In this document: piece after piece, positions 5,807-44,221 of the stretch
Numbering within the stretch: position 1 is the first letter of the stretch
How the letters are laid out: each line of letters begins with the position of its first letter
Assembly: GCA_041674205.1 (NCBI GenBank)
Contig: JBAYWF010000007.1
Coordinates: forward strand, 1 to 62,006
Length of the DNA stretch: 62,006 bases
Direction of reading: 5' to 3'
Source of the DNA: Parcubacteria group bacterium
Lineage (GTDB): Bacteria > Patescibacteriota > Minisyncoccia > Moranbacterales > UBA2206
Made by a program: the position numbers and the translations under genes
The notes under the pieces: generated by a model
Databases searched by the model: none
What the model was told of the DNA's origin: nothing
The model's input: the letters and a program-made list of their open reading frames with translations, nothing else

Positions 5807-5950
5807 ATGGCAGCCAAGAAAAAAGCAGTAAAAAAGGCAGTAAAGAAGACTGTGAAAAAAGCAGTAAAGAAGACTGTGAAAAAAGCAGTAAAAAAGGCAG
5901 TAAAAAAAGCAGCTCCAAAGAAGAAGGTAGCAGCTAAGAAAAAGAAATAG
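5807..5950 (+). CDS. 47-aa lysine/alanine-rich basic protein (histone H1-like, probable nucleoid/DNA-binding protein)
   Basis: ATG preceded by GAAAGGAAGGTG. Translation is MAAKKKAVKKAVKKTVKKAVKKTVKKAVKKAVKKAAPKKKVAAKKKK. An intrinsic terminator follows. Too short for the ORF track, whose antisense ORF 5767-6021 is an artefact of this gene. Confidence 0.55.
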   Translation: MAAKKKAVKKAVKKTVKKAVKKTVKKAVKKAVKKAAPKKKVAAKKKK

Positions 5951-20931: not shown

Positions 20932-21002
20932 GCGGGTGTAGTTTAGCGGTAGAACGGAGGTCTCCAAAACCTTTAGTGAGGGTTCGACTCCTTCCACCCG
21001 TG
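20932..21002 (+). tRNA. tRNA-Trp (anticodon CCA)
   Basis: Acceptor GCGGGTG/CACCCGT (G1-U72), anticodon arm GAGGT-CTCCAAA-ACCTT, T-arm GAGGG-TTCGACT-CCTTC. Confidence 0.8.
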
Positions 21003-21010
21003 CAGACATA

Positions 21011-21037
21011 AAAAGAGGCTTTATTTAGCCTTTTTTT
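21011..21037 (+). terminator. weak intrinsic terminator after the tRNA-Trp gene
   Basis: GAGGCT-ttattt-AGCCTT followed by a T7 run. Confidence 0.4.
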
Positions 21038-21108
21038 GTTTGGGGTAGAAGGAGTTAACTCTGAAATGATGATGCATTGACCTTAGGATATATTTATGCT
21101 AATCTATC

Positions 21109-21510
21109 TTGAAGTATCTTAACAACAAATTTAAACTTCTGGAGGATGGAACATTGAAGATACCACAAATAGCATATACTTTCTACAAACAATTGAATGA
21201 GGCTGCTAAGCGTGAAGATGCAAAATTATCATTAGTTAAAAAAATTAAGGAAGAGGAGGATTTGGAGAGGGCATTTTCCTATGTTTTAGTATTTGAATTT
21301 GCTCAGAGGGGTTTTCGTTTGGGGCAATGGGGAAGTCTTTCTGCGAGTCAATTTATGGGTGATAAAATAATAGCCCTTAAACTACTAGGGATAGAAGTCC
21401 CAGATATTCCCAAAGAAGTGATTACTTTCTTGGAGGTGGAGGGCGCACCTATTACAATGGAGTTGCATGAATTTCTTGAAGAGATGAAAAACTATGATTT
21501 AAGGAAGTAA
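21109..21510 (+). CDS. hypothetical protein (first island cassette)
   Basis: ORF with a TTG at 21109. A more likely start is the in-frame TTG at 21154, preceded by GGAGGA and downstream of a TTGACC-17-TAATCT promoter at 21077-21105. Confidence 0.5.
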   Translation: MKYLNNKFKLLEDGTLKIPQIAYTFYKQLNEAAKREDAKLSLVKKIKEEEDLERAFSYVLVFEFAQRGFRLGQWGSLSASQFMGDKIIALKLLGIEVPDIPKEVITFLEVEGAPITMELHEFLEEMKNYDLRK

Positions 21511-21639
21511 ATATGCCAGTGGCGAGCGAATTCATGGATTCATTTATGTTCGCTTGTCGGATGGCGGATTGGGCAAGTTTTAGTTTCGCAACATCGCGAC
21601 CGGGTAGGTTGGGTTTACATAACCCTCCTGCCCGTTTTT

Positions 21640-21769
21640 TTATTTCATCAACGCCATAGCACGCTCTAACCTCACCTCAATCCTATCCCAATTTTCCAAA
21701 ATATTGTTCCTAGTCGTATCCATAGCCCCGTGCATTCCAGAAACATCGGTCGCGAAAGCCGGTGTTTTT
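21640..21769 (-). repeat. cassette-junction module copy A (mini-ORF MHGAMDTTRNNILENWDRIEVRLERAMALMK at 21640-21735, then hairpin type a)
   Basis: Shares the conserved ~95-bp module ending CCGTGCAT (21730-21735). The hairpin ACATCGG...CCGGTGT plus T-run is identical in type to copy G. Confidence 0.8.
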
Positions 21770-21861
21770 GTTTGCCAGAAGCCTCAAGCACGCGTAAGAT
21801 GGAGGTGGGTAGGGAGATACCCACCTAGATAACCATCTCATAAAAAAACTGACAAAAACAG

Positions 21862-22038
21862 ATGGCTATTCGAAAAACGGAAGAAAAAACTGTTCGCAAA
21901 CTGGCGAAGATCGGCAAATAATCGGTCGGTGTGACATTGCCGATTGAAGAAGTGCGGGCGCTGGGGTGGCGGAAAGGTCAGAAGCTTTACATAAAAAGGA
22001 TCAAGTGCGGATTTGAGGTGAGGGATTGGAGAAAATGA
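21862..22038 (+). pseudogene. AbrB/MazE/SpoVT-family antitoxin-like gene with in-frame TAA
   Basis: MAIRKTEEKTVRKLAKIGK*SVGVTLPIEEVRALGWRKGQKLYIKRIKCGFEVRDWRK. The stop at 21919-21921 interrupts the conserved (G)xSxxVTLP swapped-hairpin motif. Confidence 0.6.
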
Positions 22039-22173
22039 AGGTACCTGACCCCTTCATCTCCCTTCATCCGTGCAAATAGTTAAGAAACGCTTGAATAAGG
22101 CGTTTTTTCCGTTTTTGCTTGCTTTTTAAATCAAAGTAAGTTTATACTAATATGAAATAATAATATCAATAAG

Positions 22174-23136
22174 ATGGCTGAATTTAATCTGGAAAAATAC
22201 ATTTCTCAGATAACCAGAAAACTTAAGAATGATATAAAAAATGAGGCAATTTTGATTGCAGTTTCTGGCGGTGTTGATTCCTCAGTTTCTGCCGCATTAT
22301 TAATTAAGGCAGGATTGAAAGTTAAATTGCTCTTTATAAACACAGGTTTTTTGCGTGATAATGAAAATAATGAAGTCCTTGATTCTTTAAAGAGGGCAAA
22401 TTTTGATGTTGAATATATGGACGCAAGCAGAAAGTTTTATTCAAGATTGAAAAATAAAACTTCTTCAAGCGAAAAGAGAGAAGAATTCAGGAAATTATAT
22501 TTTGAAATATTATCAAAATATGCGGTTAGAGATAATATAACCTATATAGCGCAAGGAACCCAATTTCATAACGGAACTGCAAAGATATATCATAATTGTC
22601 CAACTGAAAAATTTTTGAAAGAGGGATTTAAAAATATAGAGCCGGTAGCGGGATTAAAAAAGGATGAGATAAGATTGCTTGCTGAGAAATTAGGATTGCC
22701 AAGAAGTATAGCACAAAGAATATCATTTCCAGGTCCTGGACTACTGATTAGATTTGGAGGAAAATTTTCTCATGAGAAATTAAAGTTGATACGAGAAGCA
22801 ACTAGCATCGTAGAAAAATTTGTTATTGATAATTTTTCAGAGTTCAAAAATTGCTACCAAATATTTCCTTATTTAAGCTTGGATAACACTGTAACTTTTG
22901 TTGATCAAAACGGAAATGGAAGTAATGGGTTTGTTCTTTTGCTTAGAGTCATTCAGGTTGAAAAAAATGGTAAGGAATTGGCGTACAAACCTTTTTTTAT
23001 TAAACCAAAAACTCAAAATAAACTTGTTGATGAAATTATGTCTAAGTTGCCGATTTCAAGAGTTTGTTTTGATGCGACTTGTAAATATGGTTTTGGTGAT
23101 AAAGTGATGCCGGGAGGCACTATCGAATATGCCTAA
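22174..23136 (+). CDS. PP-loop ATP pyrophosphatase, GMP synthase ATP-PPase-subunit-like
   Basis: SGGVDSS PP-loop at the N-terminus. The C-terminal end (KVMPGGTIEYA) resembles the GMP synthase dimerisation tail. Codon usage is very AT-rich. Confidence 0.7.
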   Translation: MAEFNLEKYISQITRKLKNDIKNEAILIAVSGGVDSSVSAALLIKAGLKVKLLFINTGFLRDNENNEVLDSLKRANFDVEYMDASRKFYSRLKNKTSSSEKREEFRKLYFEILSKYAVRDNITYIAQGTQFHNGTAKIYHNCPTEKFLKEGFKNIEPVAGLKKDEIRLLAEKLGLPRSIAQRISFPGPGLLIRFGGKFSHEKLKLIREATSIVEKFVIDNFSEFKNCYQIFPYLSLDNTVTFVDQNGNGSNGFVLLLRVIQVEKNGKELAYKPFFIKPKTQNKLVDEIMSKLPISRVCFDATCKYGFGDKVMPGGTIEYA

Positions 23137-23140
23137 ATTT

Positions 23141-23275
23141 CTAGATTTGTTTTAACAGTGTATTTGCACGCTCTAATCTAATCTCAATCACATCCCAATT
23201 TTCCAGTATATTCTCTCGAAGCGCATACCCAAGCCCGTGCATGCTAAACAGAGCTCAGTCGAGCTCTGTTTTTGT
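23141..23275 (-). repeat. cassette-junction module copy B (mini-ORF MHGLGYALRENILENWDVIEIRLERANTLLKQI at 23141-23242, then hairpin type b)
   Basis: Conserved module ending CCGTGCAT (23237-23242). Hairpin AAACAGAGCTC-agtc-GAGCTCTGTTT plus T-run. Confidence 0.8.
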
Positions 23276-23363
23276 ATAGAGAAATGAGTCTTCGAACAAA
23301 AAATTATGGATACTTACCATATTTTGTGTTAAAATAGGCATAAATTAAAGTAAATCTAAAAAT

Positions 23364-23858
23364 ATGGAGAAGGAAGTCATTTGTAGCGATATCGAAGGAA
23401 ATGAATTTAATGTGCCAGTAAACGAATTATCTTTTCGCCCTTCTGTTTACGCTCTAATTATTGAAAACGGAAAAATCCTACTTTCAAAACAGTGGGACGG
23501 ATATGATTTTCCAGGAGGAGGAATGGATCTTGGTGAGACTATAGAAGAAGCTTTAAAAAGAGAGGCAATGGGGGAAACTGGTATTGAAGTTCATGTTGGC
23601 AAAGTCATTGCTTGTGAAAATTCATTTTTCAAATTGCCATTTTCAGGTACGCATGTCCACTCGATCCTTATGTATTTTTTATGTAAAAATATTGGAGGAA
23701 TATTAACAACAGATAACTTTACTGAGAACGAAAAGAAATATGCTGATATGCCAGAGTGGGTAGATTTGAATAATATTGTTAAAATTAAGTTTTGTAACTC
23801 GGTTGATAGCGTGAGAATTATTAAAGAAGCAATAAAATTGCAAGCAACGAAGGATTAA
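23364..23858 (+). CDS. NUDIX hydrolase
   Basis: Nudix box GGGMDLGETIEEALKREAMGETGI. Confidence 0.8.
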   Translation: MEKEVICSDIEGNEFNVPVNELSFRPSVYALIIENGKILLSKQWDGYDFPGGGMDLGETIEEALKREAMGETGIEVHVGKVIACENSFFKLPFSGTHVHSILMYFLCKNIGGILTTDNFTENEKKYADMPEWVDLNNIVKIKFCNSVDSVRIIKEAIKLQATKD

Positions 23859-23861
23859 GAT

Positions 23862-23997
23862 CTAAATTTGCTTCATCAAAGCCATCGCACGCTCCAACCT
23901 GATCCCAATCACATCCCAATTTTCCAGCATATTCTCTTGAAGCGCATACTCAAACCTGTGCAGTTTAGCAAAAAAGCGCTTGAAAAAGGCGTTTTTT
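23862..23997 (-). repeat. cassette-junction module copy C (mini-ORF with CTG in place of ATG: LHRFEYALQENMLENWDVIGIRLERAMALMKQI, then hairpin type c)
   Basis: Module ends CTGTGCAG (23958-23963). Hairpin AAAGCGCTT-gaaaaa-GGCGTTTTTT resembles the orphan junction hairpin at 22083-22112. Confidence 0.75.
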
Positions 23998-24087
23998 AGT
24001 TTTAGGGTTGACTTTTGTTTTGTGGATGCTAGATTTCTTATAGTTCTTATTCAAGCGTTTTTAATAAAAAAGCAATCCAGGAGGGAA

Positions 24088-24510
24088 ATGGATATGCCGG
24101 AAAATGACAAGTTGTCTTTAGCGAGGGAGGCGTATGCGAACATGAGAAGGGGTCTAGGAAATGAGGCTTCTCTTGAGGAGGCCTTGGACAACCTGAATGG
24201 CCCTAGGGCGGAGGGCTTAATGGAGTATCTATTGCTGATGGATGGCGGTCGCATAGTCCGTCTGGATGGCAGGCTGGTAATTTTTACCAGCGAGACCAAG
24301 GGGCGGCTGTTTCATACTTTCAGCCGTGCAGGAAGTGATCTGGTGCGGGCTACAAAAGCAGAATTGCTCAAGCAGATAAATCCCGATCTGGAAGTCGTGG
24401 TTGATCCCGGAAGCTCTCCGACAACTTCTCCGGGATCAATGATGGCTCTTTCTGAACTTCCTGCGATGAATGCTTGCATTCATCGCGCGCTTAACATCAA
24501 TCTGAGATAG
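24088..24510 (+). CDS. hypothetical protein
   Basis: The in-frame ATG at 24088 is preceded by AGGAGGG. The upstream part of ORF 23980-24510 overlaps the promoter-like region and is unlikely to be coding. Confidence 0.55.
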   Translation: MDMPENDKLSLAREAYANMRRGLGNEASLEEALDNLNGPRAEGLMEYLLLMDGGRIVRLDGRLVIFTSETKGRLFHTFSRAGSDLVRATKAELLKQINPDLEVVVDPGSSPTTSPGSMMALSELPAMNACIHRALNINLR

Positions 24511-24516
24511 GGGAGG

Positions 24517-24732
24517 ATGAGTATGAATTATCCATTATTGCTTTGTATTTCTTCTATATTATTGGCTGGGAGTGGCGGTCTGAATTTTGGCCTTGCTCCG
24601 TCAGTGGAACAGGAGGGCGGATGGATGATAGCGGCCCTTAGTGGGTTCTTTATCATCGCGGGCTTCTTCGGCATAATGCTGGCTTTCCAATCTTTGTTTA
24701 AGAAAGAAGAAGGTTTGGCGGATATTTCCTGA
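24517..24732 (+). CDS. small membrane protein (2 TM helices)
   Basis: 71-aa ORF with RBS GGGAGG 7 nt upstream. Two hydrophobic helices. Followed by a terminator. Confidence 0.55.
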   Translation: MSMNYPLLLCISSILLAGSGGLNFGLAPSVEQEGGWMIAALSGFFIIAGFFGIMLAFQSLFKKEEGLADIS

Positions 24733-24797
24733 CCTGCCCCAAGCTCGATTGCAATACGAAGGCCAGTGATTTCCAATAGGTTATCGCTGGTCTTTTT

Positions 24798-24924
24798 TTA
24801 TTGCATCAGTGCCATCGCGCGCTCCAATCTAATCCCGATTGTATCCCAATTTTCAATGATATTTGTCCGAATACTATCAAGCGTTCCGTGCATACTAAAC
24901 AGAGCTCAGTTGAGCTCTGTTTTT
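24798..24924 (-). repeat. cassette-junction module copy D (mini-ORF MHGTLDSIRTNIIENWDTIGIRLERAMALMQ at 24798-24893, then hairpin type b)
   Basis: Module ends CCGTGCAT (24888-24893). The hairpin and following promoter-like stretch are homologous to those after copy B. Confidence 0.8.
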
Positions 24925-25010
24925 ATAAAGAGAAATAAAATCTGTGGATATTTGCGATATTTGTGTTAAGCTAGGCATAATAATAAAAAAATAATTTGTA
25001 AAGAAATATT

Positions 25011-25613
25011 ATGAAAAATATTCAGGATAAACTCGATGCGTTTAAAGATATTGTTATAAAGAATATTCAAGGCAATGAAAATTTTCCATACAGGGAATGG
25101 TTTATTGATGATCACTTGATGATCGTTGAACGTATAGCCTTGGAGCTTTGCGACATTTATCCAGATGCCGATAGAAACCTGGTTGAGGCTCTTGTTTGGT
25201 TTCACGATTTTGGAAAACCAATTGACATGGGTAATGAATATGAGACAACTAAAACAAGAGGGGTTGAAGCTATGCGATCTATTGGTTTTGAGGAAAAATT
25301 TATCGAACGTGTTCTTGAACTGTGGGTAACGATGGAAAAAGAACAAGAGATTGATATTTCCAAAGAGGCTATCGAAGTACAGATTATCTGTTCAGCAGAT
25401 GGAGCTTCACATTTCACGGGGTTGTTCTATTCAAGCTATTTTCGCGATGAACGAGGCGAAAGCCTGGAATCGATTAAAAATCGGATTAGGGCGAAGATAA
25501 GAAAAGATTGGGAGAAGAAAATGGTGCTACCAGAAATAAAAAAAACATTTGAAAAACGATATATTAGAGCTTTGGAAATCGTTGGCGAATATCCGAATAA
25601 TTTTATTGTCTAA
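25011..25613 (+). CDS. HD-domain phosphohydrolase
   Basis: H...HD motif (ALVWFHDFGKP) and a downstream D (SADGASHF). Confidence 0.7.
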   Translation: MKNIQDKLDAFKDIVIKNIQGNENFPYREWFIDDHLMIVERIALELCDIYPDADRNLVEALVWFHDFGKPIDMGNEYETTKTRGVEAMRSIGFEEKFIERVLELWVTMEKEQEIDISKEAIEVQIICSADGASHFTGLFYSSYFRDERGESLESIKNRIRAKIRKDWEKKMVLPEIKKTFEKRYIRALEIVGEYPNNFIV

Positions 25614-25667
25614 AATTAATCTAATTACAAAGCTTTGAATCATATAGTGAGCAGCGCCGTGGGGTAA

Positions 25668-25790
25668 TTATATTTTCAAATCAGGAATATAGATATATCC
25701 TTTTGCATTCATAAAAATAGTTCTAACGTCCATGACTACCCCGTGCATGAAAAAATGAGGCTGAAAAAAGCCTCATTTTTGATAGGGGCA
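25668..25790 (-). repeat. cassette-junction module copy E, divergent (mini-ORF MHGVVMDVRTIFMNAKGYIYIPDLKI at 25668-25748, then hairpin type e)
   Basis: Only the CCCCGTGCAT end (25743-25748) and the first ~12 codons resemble copy A. Hairpin AATGAGGCT-gaaaaa-AGCCTCATTTTT. Confidence 0.55.
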
Positions 25791-26042
25791 AATTCATCTT
25801 CGGACACATTTCGATTTTTTTAATAAATTCATAGCATTTTTAGTGTGATGGTGATTTGTTCTTGACCAAGCGTAAAAACGTTGACATCCATTAAATCAAA
25901 TGCTAGGATTGCATATTCTTGATATATTACTAAAATAGTTCCTTGATACAAATAATTGTTATGCAAAAGGCCGCCATTGGCGGTAAACCAGGGTATGCGT
26001 TTTATAAAGCGTGCGCCCAAAACAAAAAAGGAGGTATGCATC

Positions 26043-26981
26043 ATGAAAAAAGATGTGCGCCAGCAAGAAGCTGAAGCAAAAGAAGAAATCGGACGTCGTC
26101 AGGGAGAGCAGTTGATTACAGCCCTGGAAAAGGCTGGGATAACCAAAAGACTCGGGAGCTTGATAGTGGAAAAAGAAGAGTATGCGAGATCCATTGTCCA
26201 TCTGCTTAGTTCTGGATCCCCAAAGATTTTCACAATGGACGATGAATCTTTGAGGAAAGTTTATTGGCATTGTTTCACGGGCATAAAAAGCCCGGAGGAG
26301 CAGGTTGATATTCTTTCCAAAGCATTCAAGGAGTTGGCAGACATACAGCTCAAACCTGGAAATGTTCTCGAAATGGCTGGTCGTATGTTTCCTTATTATC
26401 CCAAGCCGGCTGGTCCAGAAGGAATTCTTATTGTTCCCAAACTATCCTTCGTGATTAAGTGGGGAACTGGTGACTATTGCCTTGGATCAAAGAGGGTTCA
26501 GCGGGTAGTCGAAAGCACTCTCGACTTCTTGCAGTGGAATGTGGAGCCACAAGACAATTTTAATGAGAAGCGCGTGAGGCTTAATGAGAAAACAGAGAAG
26601 TCGCTTAAAAAGGTCGATCTGGAATTTAGTGGCGACTTGGTGGCTATACCCTTTCAGTTTGGAGCGTTACATAGAAGTTGCCCAAACTATGTTGTGGATA
26701 TGAGACTGCAGTGGGACGAATTCAAGTTGCCGACTTATGCAGGCGCTTGTGCGCTTATTACGCATCCAAATCGTCTTCAAATGAAAGGGTGTATCTCTCG
26801 TGACTCCTTGCATCTGGGATGTTCAGGGGATGAATTTTCTAGCAAGGGAGATGGGAATTTTGATGGGTATTGCTTTTACTACATAGGACCTGAAAGGGGC
26901 TATGATGCGAACCTTGGAGTCAGAATGGACGAGGTCGATAAATACCTTCCCAAGTTTGCCCCTATGACCGGATGGTGTTAA
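26043..26981 (+). CDS. hypothetical protein
   Basis: The ATG at 26043 is preceded by AAGGAGG. A TTGACA-17-TAGGAT promoter lies at about 25875-25903. Cys-rich C-terminal half. No family recognised. Confidence 0.6.
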   Translation: MKKDVRQQEAEAKEEIGRRQGEQLITALEKAGITKRLGSLIVEKEEYARSIVHLLSSGSPKIFTMDDESLRKVYWHCFTGIKSPEEQVDILSKAFKELADIQLKPGNVLEMAGRMFPYYPKPAGPEGILIVPKLSFVIKWGTGDYCLGSKRVQRVVESTLDFLQWNVEPQDNFNEKRVRLNEKTEKSLKKVDLEFSGDLVAIPFQFGALHRSCPNYVVDMRLQWDEFKLPTYAGACALITHPNRLQMKGCISRDSLHLGCSGDEFSSKGDGNFDGYCFYYIGPERGYDANLGVRMDEVDKYLPKFAPMTGWC

Positions 26982-27036
26982 GTCGTAAGTAATATTTCAA
27001 AGACAGGAGAGCCGAGGCTTTCTCTCCTGTCTTTTT

Positions 27037-27164
27037 TTATTTCATCAAAGCCATCGCTCGCTCTGATCTGATTTCAACTTTATCCAAATTCTCAAGGATA
27101 TTTGTCCGAATACTATCAAGCGTTCTGTGCATTCAAGAAGCAAGGCTTATTCGAGCCTTGCTTT
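27037..27164 (-). repeat. cassette-junction module copy F (mini-ORF MHRTLDSIRTNILENLDKVEIRSERAMALMK at 27037-27132, then hairpin type f)
   Basis: Module ends TCTGTGCAT (27127-27132). Hairpin GCAAGGCT-tattcg-AGCCTTGC plus T-run is the same type as in copy H. Confidence 0.8.
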
Positions 27165-27237
27165 TGCGTAGGGGTGGTGGGAATTAGAGCTGAATAATGA
27201 GATTGACATGGTTTCAGCAATGATATAAAATTTAAAT

Positions 27238-27621
27238 ATGAACAAGGACAATGCGACAAAACAAGAAGTAACCTTGGGTGACTTAGCAGCGATGGTGCGA
27301 GATGGTTTTGTCAATTCAGAAAAGGCGACGGACAAAAAAATCGATGACTTAGCAGCGATGGTGCGAGATGGCTTTGTCAATTCAGAAAAGGCGACGGACA
27401 AAAAAATCGATGACTTAGCGGCGATGGTACAAGAAGGTTTTTTGAGTGTGGAAAAAAGAATGGATGGTCTTGAGTCAAATATGAATGAGATTAAAACCGA
27501 TCTTTCGATTGTGAAATCCGATGTGTGCGAGGTCAAGGCTGAGCTGAATAAAAAAGTGGACAAGTTTGAACACAAAGACTTGGAATATCGTGTGGAAAAA
27601 TTAGAAAAGAAATTCGCCTAG
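27238..27621 (+). CDS. coiled-coil protein with 22-aa tandem repeats
   Basis: DLAAMVRDGFVNSEKATDKKID repeated about 2.5 times (66-bp DNA period, 27280-27440). TTGACA-17-TATAAA promoter upstream. Confidence 0.6.
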   Translation: MNKDNATKQEVTLGDLAAMVRDGFVNSEKATDKKIDDLAAMVRDGFVNSEKATDKKIDDLAAMVQEGFLSVEKRMDGLESNMNEIKTDLSIVKSDVCEVKAELNKKVDKFEHKDLEYRVEKLEKKFA

Positions 27622-27665
27622 AAATTCACGAAGTATTTAAAAAATGCGGAGGTAGTCCGCTTTTT

Positions 27666-27832
27666 TTATTTGCTCATTAAGGCTCTAGTTCGCTCCAATC
27701 TAATCCCAATCACATCCCAATTTTCCAGTATATTCTCTCGAAGCGCATACCCAATTTTTCAAAATATTGTTCCAGGTCATATCCATGACCTCGTGCATTC
27801 CAGAAACATCGGCCGCGAAAGCCGGTGTTTTT
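27666..27832 (-). repeat. cassette-junction module copy G, chimeric (B-type 3' part fused out of frame to an A-type 5' part), then hairpin type a
   Basis: 27666-27750 matches copies B/H. 27751-27798 matches copy A (ATATTGTTCC...GTGCAT). The downstream 27799-27940 is homologous to 21736-21860 but lacks the AbrB-like gene. Confidence 0.75.
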
Positions 27833-28012
27833 GTTTGCCAGAAGCTTCAAGCAAGCGTAAAATGTAGGTGGTAAGAGGATATCCATCTATAAACACTCTT
27901 CCTCATAAAAAACTAACAATAAAAAAGGTACCTGACCCAAATAACTTTTTTTCAAAGGCGGATTTGAAAGCATAGATTGGAGTGGATAAATATTATATTA
28001 TAATGAAAAAAT

Positions 28013-28462
28013 ATGGCAGAGGAATTTGAATTTTTTATGATTGGGCAGAAAGCCGCTCTTATCAGGGATGGAAAATGCTTGATCATTGAAATGGCAAGTA
28101 GGCCTGGTTTTTGGGAGCTGCCTGGCGGAAGAATAAACAAAGGCGAACTCAGAGAACAAGCTTTACGGAGAGAAATAAAAGAAGAGCTTGGATTGGATGA
28201 TTTTGAAATTTTGGGCGTGGTTGACTATGATGTCTGGCATCACAAAGGTGATGGCACGCCGTTTTGCGCTACTGTGCATTTGATAAAAAATGATTTTGAC
28301 AAGATTATTTTAAGCGATGAAAGTCTGCGATATGAATGGATCGCAGAAAATGAAATAGATAATTACAAATATTTTTGGGAAGCTTCACCGAAATTTATAA
28401 AAAATGGATTCAAATCGTATGGATTTATGAAAAAAGATCGGGAAATAGAGAAAGATGCCTGA
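28013..28462 (+). CDS. NUDIX hydrolase
   Basis: Nudix box GGRINKGELREQALRREIKEELGL. Confidence 0.8.
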   Translation: MAEEFEFFMIGQKAALIRDGKCLIIEMASRPGFWELPGGRINKGELREQALRREIKEELGLDDFEILGVVDYDVWHHKGDGTPFCATVHLIKNDFDKIILSDESLRYEWIAENEIDNYKYFWEASPKFIKNGFKSYGFMKKDREIEKDA

Positions 28463-28496
28463 CTCCTTTTTTCCATAATTATAATAGCCAAAAGTG

Positions 28497-28928
28497 ATGA
28501 AGCTAGAGAGGGCAACAATTGAAGATATCCAGGTGCTTTTGGAAATTGAAAAAACAACGGTGGGATTGAAGGTATATTCTGGATATTTCAATGAGAAAGA
28601 AATCGAGGGGTGGATTAAAAATGATGTCGTCTATCTTATCAAAAATGGGGAAAAAATTGCCGGCAGTATTTCATATGAAATAAAAGGCAAGGATCATGCA
28701 TATATAAGCGGATTAGTGATAAAGCCGGAATTTCAAAAACAGGGACTGGCCAAACAGGCGATGGAGTCGCTTTTTGGGGAATTGAAAGGCTTCGAAAAAA
28801 TAAGTCTCGTAGTCCACCCCGATAATCACGCAGCCAGGTTGTATGAATCATTTGGATTTGTGATTGAATCGCGCAAGGAAAACTATTTCGGTGATGGCGA
28901 GCCTCGCGTAGTTATGGTCAAACGCTAA
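28497..28928 (+). CDS. GNAT family N-acetyltransferase
   Basis: Acetyl-CoA motif A (VIKPEFQKQGLAKQAM) and YESFGF. The ATG at 28497 is preferred to the GTG at 28494. Confidence 0.75.
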   Translation: MKLERATIEDIQVLLEIEKTTVGLKVYSGYFNEKEIEGWIKNDVVYLIKNGEKIAGSISYEIKGKDHAYISGLVIKPEFQKQGLAKQAMESLFGELKGFEKISLVVHPDNHAARLYESFGFVIESRKENYFGDGEPRVVMVKR

Positions 28929-29065
28929 AGTTTAACGCTATTCATCAGAGCCATCGCACGCTCCAATCTAATCTCAATCACATCCCAATTTTCCAGTATA
29001 TTCTCTCGAAGCGCATACCCAAGCCCGTGCTGATTAAAACAAGGCTTATTCGAGCCTTGTTTTTG
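28925..29065 (-). repeat. cassette-junction module copy H (B-type mini-ORF lacking ATG; core GTGCTG), then hairpin type f
   Basis: Nearly identical to copy B across the module. It overlaps the GNAT stop codon. The hairpin AACAAGGCT-tattcg-AGCCTTGTT plus T-run matches copy F. Confidence 0.8.
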
Positions 29066-29243
29066 TATGAGTGCTTGACAAAAAAATGACTATGACAGAT
29101 AGTATTCTTAGAGTTCTAATTGGAAAAGTAGCCACACTTCTTATTAGGTCTTTGAAAATTATCATCAGGTAGTTTTCAGATCTTGAGATACTTATCTCAG
29201 GGAAATGTAGTTCTTATTATTTTTGCAAGAGGAGGTATAAATC

Positions 29244-29333
29244 ATGAAGTCCATTGTAAAAATCGAAAACATCGTTCTCCCGCCTGATTTCGTTTTTGAT
29301 GAAATCAGGCAACTCAACTCGGGCTCGGGCTGA
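29244..29333 (+). CDS. 29-aa candidate RiPP precursor/leader peptide (MKSIVKIENIVLPPDFVFDEIRQLNSGSG)
   Basis: Strong RBS (AGAGGAGG, 8 nt spacer), ATG start, TGA stop. Lies 135 nt upstream of a radical SAM/SPASM gene, with a hairpin+T-run attenuator in between. Confidence 0.45.
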   Translation: MKSIVKIENIVLPPDFVFDEIRQLNSGSG

Positions 29334-29414
29334 AGCATCAAATTTAATCACTCGGAGAGTGATACCTGCCGTATCTGCTGCGATTAAACTGGGCGAAGTG
29401 AGTCACTAAAACCA

Positions 29415-29453
29415 GCGGGGCGGGCTCATTTAGAGCTTTCCCCGCATTTTTTT
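29415..29453 (+). terminator. intrinsic terminator/attenuator between peptide ORF and radical SAM gene
   Basis: GCGGGG-19 nt-CCCCGC followed by ATTTTTTT. Confidence 0.5.
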
Positions 29454-29467
29454 AAGGAGGACTTGAG

Positions 29468-30466
29468 ATGGATCTTCGAGATGTGATAGATAGTTGTCAA
29501 ATTGATTTAACTAAAAATTGCAATTTGACCTGTTCGTTTTGTCGGCAAACCAACGAATCGGACTTGCCGGACAGCATGAGTTTCGTTCAATGGTCTTCGG
29601 TAATAGACCAGTTGCGCGGAATGAGCTGTAAGATGGTGGCTCTTGCGGGAGGTGAACCTTTGATGCATAAAGATTTCTTTTCAATTCTCGGTCTAGCAAC
29701 CGACATGATTGAGGATGTCTATGTGTTATCAAACGGAACATTGATCACGCAAAAAATTGCTACGCAGTTGGCCGAGAAGAAAATCAAGGGGTTGCAAATA
29801 TCCCTAGATGCTCTCAACCCAGTTTTGCATGATAAAATAAGGGGCAAGGTTGGCACTTGGGAGAAGGCCACGAGAGGAATGCGGTATGCGATAGACGCTG
29901 GAATCCCGGTAACTATCCGTACTACTGTTTATCGTGAGAACGTGCAAGAGGCAATGTCTCTCTTAGAATTCGCGCATGATATTGGGGCGAGAATCTATGG
30001 GATTAGGCGTGTGGTCCCGACAGGAAGGGGTGGATCGGTGGATTTGCTGAAGCCGGATGAATTGCATACATTGTTCGTGGCTTTGGCTAATAGAGCCAGT
30101 GAACTGAAGATGCGTCTTTCTTTGGGTGATCCATTTTCCCGTTCATTGCTGAATGAGCAATCATTTGTTGAAGGTAAGATAGGTGGATGTTCTGTTGGGC
30201 TGAATATTATGTATATAGCCCAAGACGGTTCGGTCTTGTTGTGTCCATGTCTCCCGGTGTATTGCGGAGATGTGAAACAGGATTCTGTGAAATCCATCTG
30301 GAGCGATGCAAAAGCTTATTCTGTTGCCAGATCTTTGCGATCAAATTTGCAGGGCAGGTGTGGAGAATGCAAGTACAAATTCCAATGCGGGGGCTGTAGG
30401 GCATCAGCTTTCTACTCATCTGGTAATATTTGCGGCGAGGATCCGGGTTGCTGGTACAAGCCTTGA
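29468..30466 (+). CDS. radical SAM protein with C-terminal SPASM domain (peptide-modifying maturase-like)
   Basis: CNLTCSFC (CX3CX2C) at residues 18-25, and GGEPL. The C-terminus has GGCSVG...CPC and CGECKYKFQCGGC...C auxiliary-cluster cysteines. Confidence 0.85.
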   Translation: MDLRDVIDSCQIDLTKNCNLTCSFCRQTNESDLPDSMSFVQWSSVIDQLRGMSCKMVALAGGEPLMHKDFFSILGLATDMIEDVYVLSNGTLITQKIATQLAEKKIKGLQISLDALNPVLHDKIRGKVGTWEKATRGMRYAIDAGIPVTIRTTVYRENVQEAMSLLEFAHDIGARIYGIRRVVPTGRGGSVDLLKPDELHTLFVALANRASELKMRLSLGDPFSRSLLNEQSFVEGKIGGCSVGLNIMYIAQDGSVLLCPCLPVYCGDVKQDSVKSIWSDAKAYSVARSLRSNLQGRCGECKYKFQCGGCRASAFYSSGNICGEDPGCWYKP

Positions 30467-30516
30467 GAGTGAGGGGGACGAATTTATTTAAAAAATCCCC
30501 CTTACTCTGAAATATT

Positions 30517-30948
30517 ATGAATAAAATTAATTTAGAAATTTTTGATAAAAAATATATTCCCACTTTGATGGGTTGGTATTCCAATCCTAATAATAGGAAA
30601 TACATGCTAACGCAAACTACTACGGAGGAGAATGCTTTTAAAATGATTCGGAATGATGAGAATAGAAAGTGCTATTGTATTGAGTTGGATAATCTGCCAA
30701 TCGGGTATATTGTGCTTATGAATATTCAATCTAAAATCGGAAGAGTTGTCATGATGATTGATGAACCATTTACCAAAAAAGGATATGGATTTCAATCGCT
30801 TGTCATTTTGGAAAAGGAGGCTGTAAAATTGGGGGTGGAAAGATTAACTTTGGAGGTTCGCACGGATAATGTCGCCGCTATTTCTCTTTATAAAAAATTC
30901 GGATTTGGTTTGAAGTATATCGAAGCAGTAATGGAAAAAGAAATATAA
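30517..30948 (+). CDS. GNAT family N-acetyltransferase (RimJ/RimL-like)
   Basis: 143 aa with KKGYGFQSL and YKKFGF motifs. No terminator between it and the radical SAM gene. Confidence 0.7.
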   Translation: MNKINLEIFDKKYIPTLMGWYSNPNNRKYMLTQTTTEENAFKMIRNDENRKCYCIELDNLPIGYIVLMNIQSKIGRVVMMIDEPFTKKGYGFQSLVILEKEAVKLGVERLTLEVRTDNVAAISLYKKFGFGLKYIEAVMEKEI

Positions 30949-43393: not shown

Positions 43394-44221
43394 ATGGCAA
43401 TGGAAACTGAAATCCAACCGGAAGCGGTCCGACCACGGGCTGAAAAGATGTTCCTCCTGGTTTTTGTCCTGCTGATAGCCGGTTCGATAGGCGTAACCTA
43501 TTGGAAGATAATGGTCAAGCGCGATTATGTGATTATGGCGCAAGCCGATTGTGATCCATATGAGGAAAAATGTTTCGTGCATATTTGCGATCCGGATCCG
43601 GCTGCAGACGGGGAGTGGTGCACGGGCGATCCGGAAGAGGATACTTGGTATACGAAAAACATCCGTCGTATGGCCTATAATATTCCGGATTGCGATCCGA
43701 ATGACGAGGATTGCGCGGCTCTGGTTTGCGAAGAAGGGGAGGAAAATTGTTCCTATGAATATTGCGACGGAACAAATGTTCCGGAAGGCGACACTTGCAA
43801 CGATCCGGTGCGATATGCTATAGATAATCCGGCGGAGGATGAAGAAGCTGAATGTGATCCGGAAACGGAAGAAGATTGCGTCATTGAAGAGGGGGTGGAA
43901 TGTGATCCGGAGACCGATGATTGCGCGGCCAGCGAAGGAACTGAGTGCGATCCGGCCACTGAGGATTGCAACGTCGAAGAGAATCCAGCCGCATGCGATC
44001 CGGAAACGGAAGATTGCGCGGTGGATGGAACCGCTGAATGTGATCCGGCTACGGAAGATTGTAGTGCTGGGGATGCTGCTGAGTGCGATCCAACCACGGA
44101 GGATTGCGGCGCGGATGGGAATTCTGCGGCTGGCGAAAGCCTTTCGGTTTCAGATGGCATAAATGCGGATAGTTCCTGCCAAAGCGATGCTGACGGAGTA
44201 TGTCCGCTGGGAAAAGAATAG
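43394..44221 (+). CDS. membrane-anchored acidic Cys-rich repeat protein (CDPxTEDC repeats)
   Basis: One N-terminal TM helix, then 11 CDP motifs including 7 tandem ~14-aa units of xECDPxTEDCxxxx. Confidence 0.65.
   Translation: MAMETEIQPEAVRPRAEKMFLLVFVLLIAGSIGVTYWKIMVKRDYVIMAQADCDPYEEKCFVHICDPDPAADGEWCTGDPEEDTWYTKNIRRMAYNIPDCDPNDEDCAALVCEEGEENCSYEYCDGTNVPEGDTCNDPVRYAIDNPAEDEEAECDPETEEDCVIEEGVECDPETDDCAASEGTECDPATEDCNVEENPAACDPETEDCAVDGTAECDPATEDCSAGDAAECDPTTEDCGADGNSAAGESLSVSDGINADSSCQSDADGVCPLGKE

Follow-up and report, generated by a model that had tools for sequence, protein, structure and literature searches.

Candidate phyla radiation (CPR) bacteria have very small genomes, and few ways in which they exchange genes have been recognised. 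A stretch of 62,006 nucleotides from a Parcubacteria group bacterium (GenBank assembly GCA_041674205.1, contig JBAYWF010000007.1; hereafter the window, meaning the whole of this DNA) contains, between 21.0 and 29.1 kb, an array of gene cassettes that starts at a tRNA-Trp gene and in which the cassettes are separated by a short core sequence, C(C/T)GTGC(A). This sequence is probably the attachment (att) core of a large serine recombinase (LSR) clade of Patescibacteria/CPR, and the array probably consists of nine recombinase-less cassettes stacked behind tRNA-Trp. Their stacking by a CPR serine recombinase most likely makes the region an integron-like gene-capture locus with a different enzyme. 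The core is the 3′ end of tRNA-Trp, arrays lie at tRNA-Trp in six genomes, and homology between cassettes is bounded by the core. In relatives, an open reading frame (ORF) for an LSR runs across the core, and another LSR ORF is fused in frame to a module of the kind that ends a cassette.

A repeat search of the window detects a unit of about 96 nt in seven copies (family D1), to which a diverged eighth copy (module E) and an orphan core are added to give nine. With a profile of the unit, nhmmer finds no convincing copy (E < 0.5) in the 62-kb window outside 21.6–29.1 kb. The G+C content of about 0.47 falls to 0.34–0.42 over the span of the array. Every module, as well as the orphan, has C(C/T)GTGC as its last bases. 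The nine cores listed in a preliminary description of this DNA are all present at the positions given there: six read GTGCAT (A, 21730–21735; B, 23237–23242; D, 24888–24893; E, 25743–25748; F, 27127–27132; G, 27793–27798), one reads GTGCAG (C, 23958–23963), one GTGCTG (H, 29027–29032) and the orphan GTGCAA (22070–22075). A tenth core at 20996–21005, missing from that list, lies at the 3′ end of tRNA-Trp, and a hairpin like those at the other junctions comes next. By itself the core 8-mer is weakly enriched, with 7 matches against 2.5 expected and at least 7 matches in 2 of 100 shuffles; the signal lies in the sequence context and not in the motif count.

The minus strand of each unit in the window reads as an ORF of 26–33 codons (mini-ORF), e.g. 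MHGLGYALRENILENWDVIEIRLERAMALMK and variants, and module E reads MHGVVMDVRTIFMNAKGYIYIPDLKI. The preliminary description had sorted the modules into three types, with E placed in type 3 and G composed of parts of types 1 and 3. The chimeric nature of G stands, but E belongs to a second family with the pattern MHGVVxDVRTIF..YIYIPDL (E-type, as distinct from the M-type modules), which is also seen in the public contigs L001, L005, L020, L024 and L026. At every junction of the window, a hairpin consisting of an A-run, stem, loop, stem and T-run is located 3–10 nt past GTGC. The hairpin types a, b and f proposed earlier are real when judged by sequence identity, which to the right of the core is 90% for B/D and 82% for F/H, and which for A/G is 90% over 122 nt spanning the core. 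The four combinations of module type and hairpin type are also all present, with 1b in B, 1f in H, 2b in D and 2f in F. A plus-strand promoter-like site lies downstream of all eight hairpins that follow modules A–H, these sites being consensus matches only, whose total count is not above that in shuffled controls; none is listed for the hairpins after tRNA-Trp and the orphan core. The terminator precedes the promoter-like site, and one or two plus-strand genes come next. The cargo of the array comprises a PP-loop ATPase, two NUDIX proteins, an HD-domain protein, a GNAT protein and several proteins of unknown function. PADLOC gives no convincing defence assignment for this cargo; the NUDIX genes match the candidate family PDC-S07, and there is a weak match to QueC.

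The tRNA-Trp gene at the head of the array (20932–21003, plus strand, CCA anticodon; detected by ARAGORN and Rfam) ends in ...CACCCGTGCA (~20996–21005), so that its final bases are the core, which covers the last bases of the acceptor stem, the discriminator base and one or two bases of the trailer. An Rfam scan of the window gives four tRNAs and nothing else. Direct repeats of YYGTGC occur at each of the nine junctions of the window as well as at the tRNA-Trp 3′ end, and likewise in more than 20 other contigs. Six genomes, namely those of the window, L001/L008, L005, L018, L023 (= L004) and L024, have modules downstream of tRNA-Trp and on its strand. Since only 7–8 nt are common to tRNA-Trp and the modules, exchange between them cannot be homologous recombination. 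Taken together, these sequences point to tRNA-Trp as most likely the chromosomal attachment site of the array. An element resembling TTCGA, TCCGA or TTCTA is seen by eye about 20–24 nt to the left of GTGC in both module families (e.g. 23213–23218 and 24864–24870), and the T-arm of tRNA-Trp has TTCGA (20984–20988) about 21 nt to the left of GTGC. The attP and attB arms of LSRs are known to differ by an offset of a few base pairs, and the TTCGA-like elements might reflect similar half-site recognition with such an offset. A likeness between the modules and the body of tRNA-Trp (common ATTCTCTC) is found by inspection in type 1 only and at a different spacing, and is probably due to chance. In the related Moraniibacteriota metagenome-assembled genome (MAG), L001:10306–10713 contains a partial 5′ copy of tRNA-Trp with a small hairpin insertion, a GIY-YIG endonuclease gene and the intact tRNA-Trp, an arrangement that resembles an insertion of the homing-endonuclease or intron type at the tRNA-Trp gene.

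A scan of GTDB genomes and JGI metagenomes with the back-translated module pattern yields 20 loci and, together with profile searches, about 40 module copies in CPR contigs. All intact copies end in YYGTGC, followed by a hairpin. The window array is also found on an ENA metagenome contig (L002). In the nearest named relative, the Candidatus Moraniibacteriota MAG (L001/L008), the flanks are 87–90% identical, and the genes behind tRNA-Trp are completely different. The window and more than 20 public contigs give 37 distinct junctions, of which 35 have a strong hairpin (median minimum free energy −15.4 kcal/mol, median z = −4.2). When 40 nt on each side of the core are compared over the 666 pairs of these junctions, the identities of the left and right flanks are uncorrelated (r = −0.04). 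The left flanks are at least 85% identical in 65 pairs, and only two of these reach 85% on the right as well; the right flanks are at least 85% identical in 11 pairs, only two of which are alike on the left. The same families of right flanks are preceded by tRNA-Trp, by M-type modules and by E-type modules. The switch in similarity is clustered at GTGC and not spread across the module, in agreement with the preliminary description.

Cassette boundaries deduced from cross-genome homology coincide with the core. All-against-all BLAST places the limits of cassette homology within 2–3 nt of GTGC at the left ends and 3–7 nt at the right ends, supporting the earlier definition of a cassette as hairpin, promoter, gene or genes and module. 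One cassette, Y, lies straight after tRNA-Trp in L005 and after the module of another cassette, X, in L022 (tRNA-Trp, X, module, Y). The two copies of Y are 97% identical over 653 nt, with homology from the core onward, and the tRNA-Trp genes of the two contigs are 87% identical. Cassette X of L022 is likewise bounded by cores and recurs in L010, there behind a module. The L005/L022 pair resembles a comparison of an occupied with an unoccupied site with its boundary at the core, although the lineages differ and the pair is not strictly isogenic. The fixed short crossover core of the preliminary description thus coincides with the tRNA-Trp 3′ end, cassette homology is bounded by its GTGC, and a recombinase gene lies on it in relatives. 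A motif, TAG(G/A)G(G/A)-N(8–14)-CTTCG(A/G)AC, is found just past the hairpin at 9 of 36 distinct cassette left ends, compared with 2% of random 70-nt windows; it occurs at 23272–23300 and 25776–25806 of the window and in L004, L010, L011, L020, L022, L024 and L025, and looser variants follow the tRNA-Trp hairpin and hairpin f of the window. This left-end motif may serve as a binding site for a protein, or may be what is left of a decayed recombinase 3′ end (its FEP..FA part).

A candidate for the recombinase is found in relatives. In the Parcubacteria contig L023, tRNA-Trp is followed on the opposite strand by a gene for a 542-residue LSR with Resolvase, Recombinase and Zn_ribbon_recom domains. 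Its frame crosses the hairpin, encoding ..ETKTAPSRETVSI, and passes ATGCACGG in the MHG frame, and its stop codon lies in antisense tRNA-Trp. The element is 10.8 kb long, carries restriction-modification genes, has no internal core and ends at its far side in an M-type module and a core. When its ends are joined in silico to simulate circularisation, the LSR ORF gains ..MHGGLDDLRTNILENWDKVEIRLERAMVLLKQN*. LSR genes are also found in L027 and L026. In L027, whose neighbourhood (Tyr/Thr-tRNA, PSP1, EF-Ts, S2) is that of the window, the LSR (P0013) reads into antisense tRNA-Trp and ends in "..MHGM*". P0011 of L026, whose accession series is the same as that of the ENA contig of the window, is a full-length LSR with an in-frame E-type tail that is 90% identical to module E of the window; its similarity to the L023 LSR (84%) extends up to the core and no further. 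P0004 and P0001 are 3′ remnants of LSR genes joined in frame to an M-type tail, and the distant LSRs P0042 and P0053 have homologous C-terminal tails (..ILxNWEL..LER..ALLAQR); the contig of P0042 (L029) stops right behind the LSR stop codon and gives no context. The full-size LSR elements L025:3518–10904 and L023:2659–13449 carry restriction-modification cargo (Eco57I, a DNA methylase, RE_Alw26IDE, an S24 peptidase and an HTH_17 protein in L025; an N6_N4 methylase, ResIII and a UvrD-type helicase in L023), and so the autonomous elements at the tRNA-Trp site appear to be defence islands.

In a set of 2843 LSR homologues, the ~25 closest have ..KTKTAPxRExVSx[M/V]HG in frame near the C-terminus, followed by an antisense-tRNA tail wherever the tail exceeds a residue or two. 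Twelve of them stop one residue past HG (MHGM*/MHGR*/MHGV*), for which antisense tRNA-Trp has been demonstrated only in P0013. More distant LSR clades run on into other tRNAs (..GRRDSNP..). Among solved structures, SPbeta integrase is the closest (E = 6e-14, residues 11–471 aligned), and since the alignment of the fold ends at residue 471, the att core lies about 40 codons past the conserved fold. With about 26% identity to phage integrases, the LSR is by homology a genuine but distant serine integrase. The minus strand of hairpin a in cassette 1 (21727–21783) reads in frame as GFWQTKTPAFATDVSGMHG, which resembles LSR C-termini. Judging from such reading frames, the hairpin most likely derives, at least in part, from the LSR coding sequence just before the core.

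The mini-ORF has a coding signature. In its frame 37% of differing codons are synonymous, compared with 5–12% in four other frames and 31% in the mirror frame, and differences among modules are more frequent at third (3572) than at second (1642) codon positions. The stop codon is fixed, and a terminator lies behind it in several copies. ATG is absent from 10 of 24 distinct module copies, which have CTG, CAG, TTG, GTG or TGG, and inspection reveals no GGAGG-like ribosome-binding site before the start. The peptide is not hydrophobic. Most likely, the mini-ORF of the preliminary description is not a gene in its own right but consists of the last ~31 codons, now detached, of an LSR gene that spans its own attachment site. 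Such an origin would explain the coding-like conservation, the fixed stop codon with its terminator, the missing ribosome-binding site and the missing ATG.

These observations lead to a plausible mechanism for the growth of the array. The LSR clade would integrate DNA at the tRNA-Trp 3′ end by exchange within the invariant CCGTGC block, with GT or TG as a guess at the crossover dinucleotide. Each junction would consist of the module, which is the left att arm and belongs to the upstream cassette, the core, and the terminator hairpin, which is the right att arm and belongs to the downstream cassette, so that an internal junction would be an attP-like site assembled from two units. Because the left arm would stay with the upstream cassette and the right arm with the downstream one, module and hairpin types would be unlinked and the switch would fall at the core. 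An autonomous element would carry, in order, a core, an antisense LSR gene with its 3′ end across the core, cargo, a module and a core. Since attP would lie inside the LSR gene, integration would cut off its last ~31 codons, carry them to the far end of the element and let the truncated gene read on into antisense tRNA-Trp, thereby swapping the last ~31 residues of the protein for an antisense-tRNA tail. The hairpin would be encoded in the last ~15 LSR codons before the core (..KTKTAPxRETVSxMHG) and would also terminate the transcript of the tRNA or of the preceding cassette, each cassette bringing its own promoter. The tRNA would retain its 3′ end after integration, and the incoming unit would add a terminator, a promoter and cargo, leaving its module at the far end. 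New units would enter at the tRNA-proximal junction, possibly at any junction, and push the older ones outward. Consistent with entry next to the tRNA, the LSR-bearing element is the unit adjoining the tRNA in both L023 and L027.

The window contains no recombinase of any kind among its ~50 ORFs when these are compared with Pfam. The window cassettes would therefore be LSR-less derivatives and not autonomous members, and the enzyme is deduced from the relatives. The nine LSR-less units would have been moved in trans or would be decay products of larger elements. We infer that an LSR acts on them, that they are mobilised in trans and that the swap of the tail affects activity; mobility at the level of single units is suggested by the compact and uniform cassettes, by their presence at different array positions in distant genomes and by the left-end motif. 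In a more far-reaching form of this idea, offered tentatively and somewhat doubtful, the locus would be an integron-like LSR platform for gene capture, in which minimal cassettes of terminator, promoter, gene and ~100-nt module are excised and re-inserted in trans at tRNA-Trp, every junction is reusable in breach of the strict attP × attB rule, and the ~31-residue tail swap is a built-in switch of activity or directionality.

The missing recombinase is one of several points that weigh against stacking by an LSR. Neither isogenic pairs of occupied and empty sites nor circular intermediates are seen, and back-translated patterns detect no module copies in viral contigs, where the M-type pattern gives nothing and the E-type pattern one chance match. 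No full-length LSR of the tRNA-Trp clade with an M-type tail is present among 1.84 billion representative proteins, whose clustering at 50% identity could hide such forms, or in a word-indexed search, and a search with a chimeric profile of LSR and M-type tail returns short ORFs only. The link of the M-type tail to the LSR is accordingly suggested by the simulated circularisation, the in-frame remnants and the distant LSRs. A hidden Markov model of the LSR C-terminus is significant for few cassette left ends, most hairpins having no significant similarity to it, and so an origin from the LSR gene is not claimed for every hairpin. The recombination of canonical LSRs is confined to attP with attB, and so re-insertion at an occupied junction or excision between junctions would need non-canonical behaviour of the kind shown by CcrAB. 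Two events in the array, not recognised as such in the preliminary description, are also not core crossovers. In module G, a type 1 module is joined at a CCCAA microhomology to that half of a type 3 module which adjoins the core, and the A and G junctions are alike across the core, which makes the A/G pair a segmental duplication; both are driven by homology or microhomology.

Another reading retains the core and the enzyme but regards the cassettes as full-size LSR elements worn down by deletion, which never moved as units, the array changing only by full-size integrations, deletions and homologous recombination between modules. We regard this as a real but lesser possibility. In L023 and L027 a full-size LSR element does adjoin the tRNA, small cassettes lie distal to that of L023, and decay is evident in the window from a MazE-like pseudogene, the orphan core, the chimeric module and the copies without ATG. 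Homologous genes are also coupled to different module types (cassette X in L010 and L022, and the NUDIX cassettes of the window and L020), as recombination between modules predicts. However, the LSR-less cassettes are very compact and still have the two att arms, a clean terminator and a promoter-like site of their own, the small cassette Y is nearly unchanged at different array positions in genomes whose tRNA-Trp genes have diverged far more, and the left-end motif accompanies unrelated cargo well above its background frequency (counted over 36 junctions). Stacking by the LSR with some movement of single units remains our preferred reading.

Localised homologous recombination or gene conversion among modules and hairpins, without any site-specific enzyme, would find good substrates in direct repeats of about 100 nt with 65–100% identity, and both the fusion in module G and the 122-nt similarity of the A/G junctions are its products; as an account of the whole array it is improbable, because tRNA-Trp has the same right flanks as the modules despite its short overlap with them, M-type and E-type modules are mixed within arrays although they are alike in little past the core and the first codons, the switch point is always GTGC, and the LSR gene of relatives physically overlaps the core. 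Still less probable is that the mini-ORF is an independent gene for a small protein, such as a regulator or an antitoxin-like peptide, with its start codon at the break in similarity. The coding-type substitutions, the conserved length of 31–34 codons with its stop and the terminator past the stop in several copies would suit such a gene. However, the lack of ATG in many copies and of a recognisable ribosome-binding site contrasts with the strong sites of this genome's genes, the terminator hairpin precedes the start by 3–10 nt, the tRNA sequence fixes the first three codons, and the same peptide families are the C-terminal ends of LSR ORFs. No gene caller has recorded genes of 31–34 residues with exactly these sequences, and exact-sequence look-ups of mini-ORFs A and D in a gene-position index are empty, these ORFs never having been called as genes. 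An integron-like system or a tyrosine-integrase island, with the modules as attC-like folded sites or integrase arm sites, might be expected from the co-oriented cassettes, the conserved end element of ~100 nt with the crossover at its extreme end and the tRNA gene, a classic target of tyrosine integrases. It is scarcely credible, because no tyrosine recombinase is found in the window or beside tRNA-Trp in the relatives examined, and the cassettes have their own promoter-like sites. Attempts to fold four modules as single-stranded DNA on both strands gave z from −0.5 to +0.6, i.e. no structure, and attC-like folding was rejected. The sole candidate for an internal inverted repeat, GCACG...CGTGC, was considered as an analogue of R″/R′ and rejected as well, its left copy varying at synonymous codon positions.

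The array can be compared with four known systems. The staphylococcal cassette chromosome (SCC) elements, including SCCmec and pseudo-SCC, integrate at the 3′ end of rlmH (orfX) in staphylococci by means of the LSRs CcrAB and CcrC, and recombinase-less units of SCC arrays can be moved in trans. SCC elements and, on the mechanism proposed here, the present array owe their position to a serine recombinase that targets the 3′ end of a conserved gene and leaves that gene functional, and in both cases tandem elements are separated by short direct repeats of the target end. In contrast to SCC, the target here is tRNA-Trp, the units are far smaller (0.3–1.4 kb) and have an end module of ~100 nt and a terminator hairpin, the hosts are CPR bacteria, and the recombinase gene itself spans the attachment site. 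The likeness to SCC and Ccr is functional only; the LSR is distant from characterised ones. Integrons likewise have co-oriented cassettes of one or two genes on a fixed chromosomal platform and a recombination element almost wholly at the 3′ end of the cassette, because crossover takes place at its extreme end; in both systems this position allows adjacent cassette ends to reassort. Integron cassettes are mostly promoterless and are expressed from the platform promoter Pc, whereas the present cassettes have their own promoter-like sites and terminators, the enzyme is a serine and not a tyrosine recombinase, no integrase lies beside the array, the array starts at a tRNA gene and not at attI, and the modules do not fold as single strands. 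Moreover, no ORF of the window matches Phage_integrase, the family of the IntI-type enzymes by which an integron would be recognised.

The tycheposons and tRNA islands of Prochlorococcus are similar in that successive site-specific integrations push older elements inward and that degenerate remnants and repeated tRNA ends occur in streamlined genomes without other routes of gene transfer. Tandem accretion at a tRNA gene is seen here as well, with nine units behind tRNA-Trp. Tycheposons have a lineage-specific tyrosine recombinase and replication modules and leave partial tRNA copies, and of 937 integrase-carrying elements 910 have a tyrosine recombinase and the rest an LSR (bioRxiv 10.1101/2020.12.28.424599). 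In the present array, by contrast, the repeat is made of 7–8 nt of the tRNA and a ~96-nt tail of the recombinase gene, the LSR ORF crosses att, and most units are minimal cassettes; no replication genes, which would mark a tycheposon, are found in the window cassettes. Sulfolobus fuselloviruses have SSV1-type integrases, whose int gene contains attP and is partitioned when the virus integrates into a tRNA gene. The LSR described here also has its att site within its own gene, so that integration would split the gene and place one piece at the element's opposite end. The SSV integrases, however, belong to archaeal viruses and are tyrosine recombinases, and their gene is largely destroyed by the split, whereas only the last ~31 codons, past the LSR fold, would be exchanged here, and so the integrated LSR gene probably still encodes a complete catalytic protein. 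Judged from its sequence, the locus belongs to none of SCC, integron, tycheposon and SSV1 and represents a new form of site-specific, tRNA-anchored island building. Full-text searches of the literature brought up no account of LSR cassette arrays in CPR/Patescibacteria.

A hypervariable stack at a single tRNA gene would be one of the chief places where accessory genes enter the genomes of CPR bacteria. The LSR clade pointed to by these data targets tRNA 3′ ends and has a gene that spans its own att site, and so the C-terminus of the protein would depend on the state of integration. The products of integration seemingly stay usable as targets, making serial stacking possible. If this is true, a reusable product site would be a landing pad that regenerates after each insertion, which is missing from present engineering tools based on serine integrases.

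The nine cassettes are all on the plus strand. Cassette 0 (21004–21735) has a terminator hairpin at ~21010–21040, an ORF for 133 residues (21109–21510) without a Pfam match, a terminator and module A (21640–21735; core 21728–21735). Cassette 1 (21736–22075) is decayed; it has hairpin a (~21741–21773), a promoter-like site at 21772, a frameshifted pseudogene for a MazE/AbrB-like antitoxin (21863–22038) and the orphan core (22068–22075) without a module. After a hypothetical one-base repair, the pseudogene matches MazE_antitoxin with E = 1.5e-5, and a further-deleted copy of the left end of cassette 1 is located at 27799–27940. Cassette 2 (22076–23242) consists of a hairpin (22082–22108), the PP-loop ATPase gene (22174–23136) and module B (type 1, 23141–23242). 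Cassette 3 (23243–23963) consists of hairpin b, a promoter-like site at 23307, a NUDIX gene (23364–23858) and module C (type 1, first codon CTG, 23862–23963), and is 82% identical to a cassette of L020 that has other neighbours. Cassette 4 (23964–24893) has hairpin c, a promoter-like site at 24008, two ORFs of unknown function (24088–24510 and 24517–24732), the second of which looks hydrophobic by sequence, a terminator and module D (type 2, 24798–24893).

Cassette 5 (24894–25748) is composed of hairpin b′, the HD-domain gene (25011–25613) and module E (second family, 25668–25748). Cassette 6 (25749–27132) has hairpin e, a promoter-like site at 25881, an ORF for 312 residues of unknown function (26043–26981), a terminator and module F (type 2, 27037–27132). 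Cassette 7 (27133–27798) has hairpin f, a promoter at 27203 (TTGACA-17-TAAAAT), a repeat-containing ORF (27238–27621), a terminator and the chimeric module G (27670–27798). Within this ORF, which encodes 127 residues, a near-perfect tandem duplication of 66 nt (98%; 27279–27410) doubles a segment of 22 residues, DLAAMVRDGFVNSEKATDKKID. Cassette 8 (27799–29032) begins with hairpin a′, which is a copy of the cassette 1 left end, and carries a NUDIX gene (28013–28462), a GNAT gene (28494–28928) and module H (type 1, first codon CAG, 28934–29032). Its GNAT gene and module have 73–81% identity to cassettes in L013, L007/L016/L019 and L011, with homology that stops at the core. Past the last module lies hairpin f′ (29033–29068, plus strand), with no modules beyond it, which is either the left end of another unit or the original sequence downstream of the tRNA.

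Right behind the last module, 29244–30948 contains an ORF for 29 residues, a radical SAM/SPASM enzyme gene and a GNAT gene. This looks like a small cluster for a ribosomally synthesised and post-translationally modified peptide, and it could be a further, module-less unit or native flanking DNA. Elsewhere in the window, five to six repeats of 45–48 nt (43687–44136) encode an acidic, Cys-containing motif (..ECDPETED..) within an ORF for 275 residues (43394–44221) that has no Pfam match, and a run of 12-nt repeats at 5818–5919 (GAAAAAAGCAGTAAAAAAGGCAGT...) corresponds to a lysine-rich low-complexity stretch.

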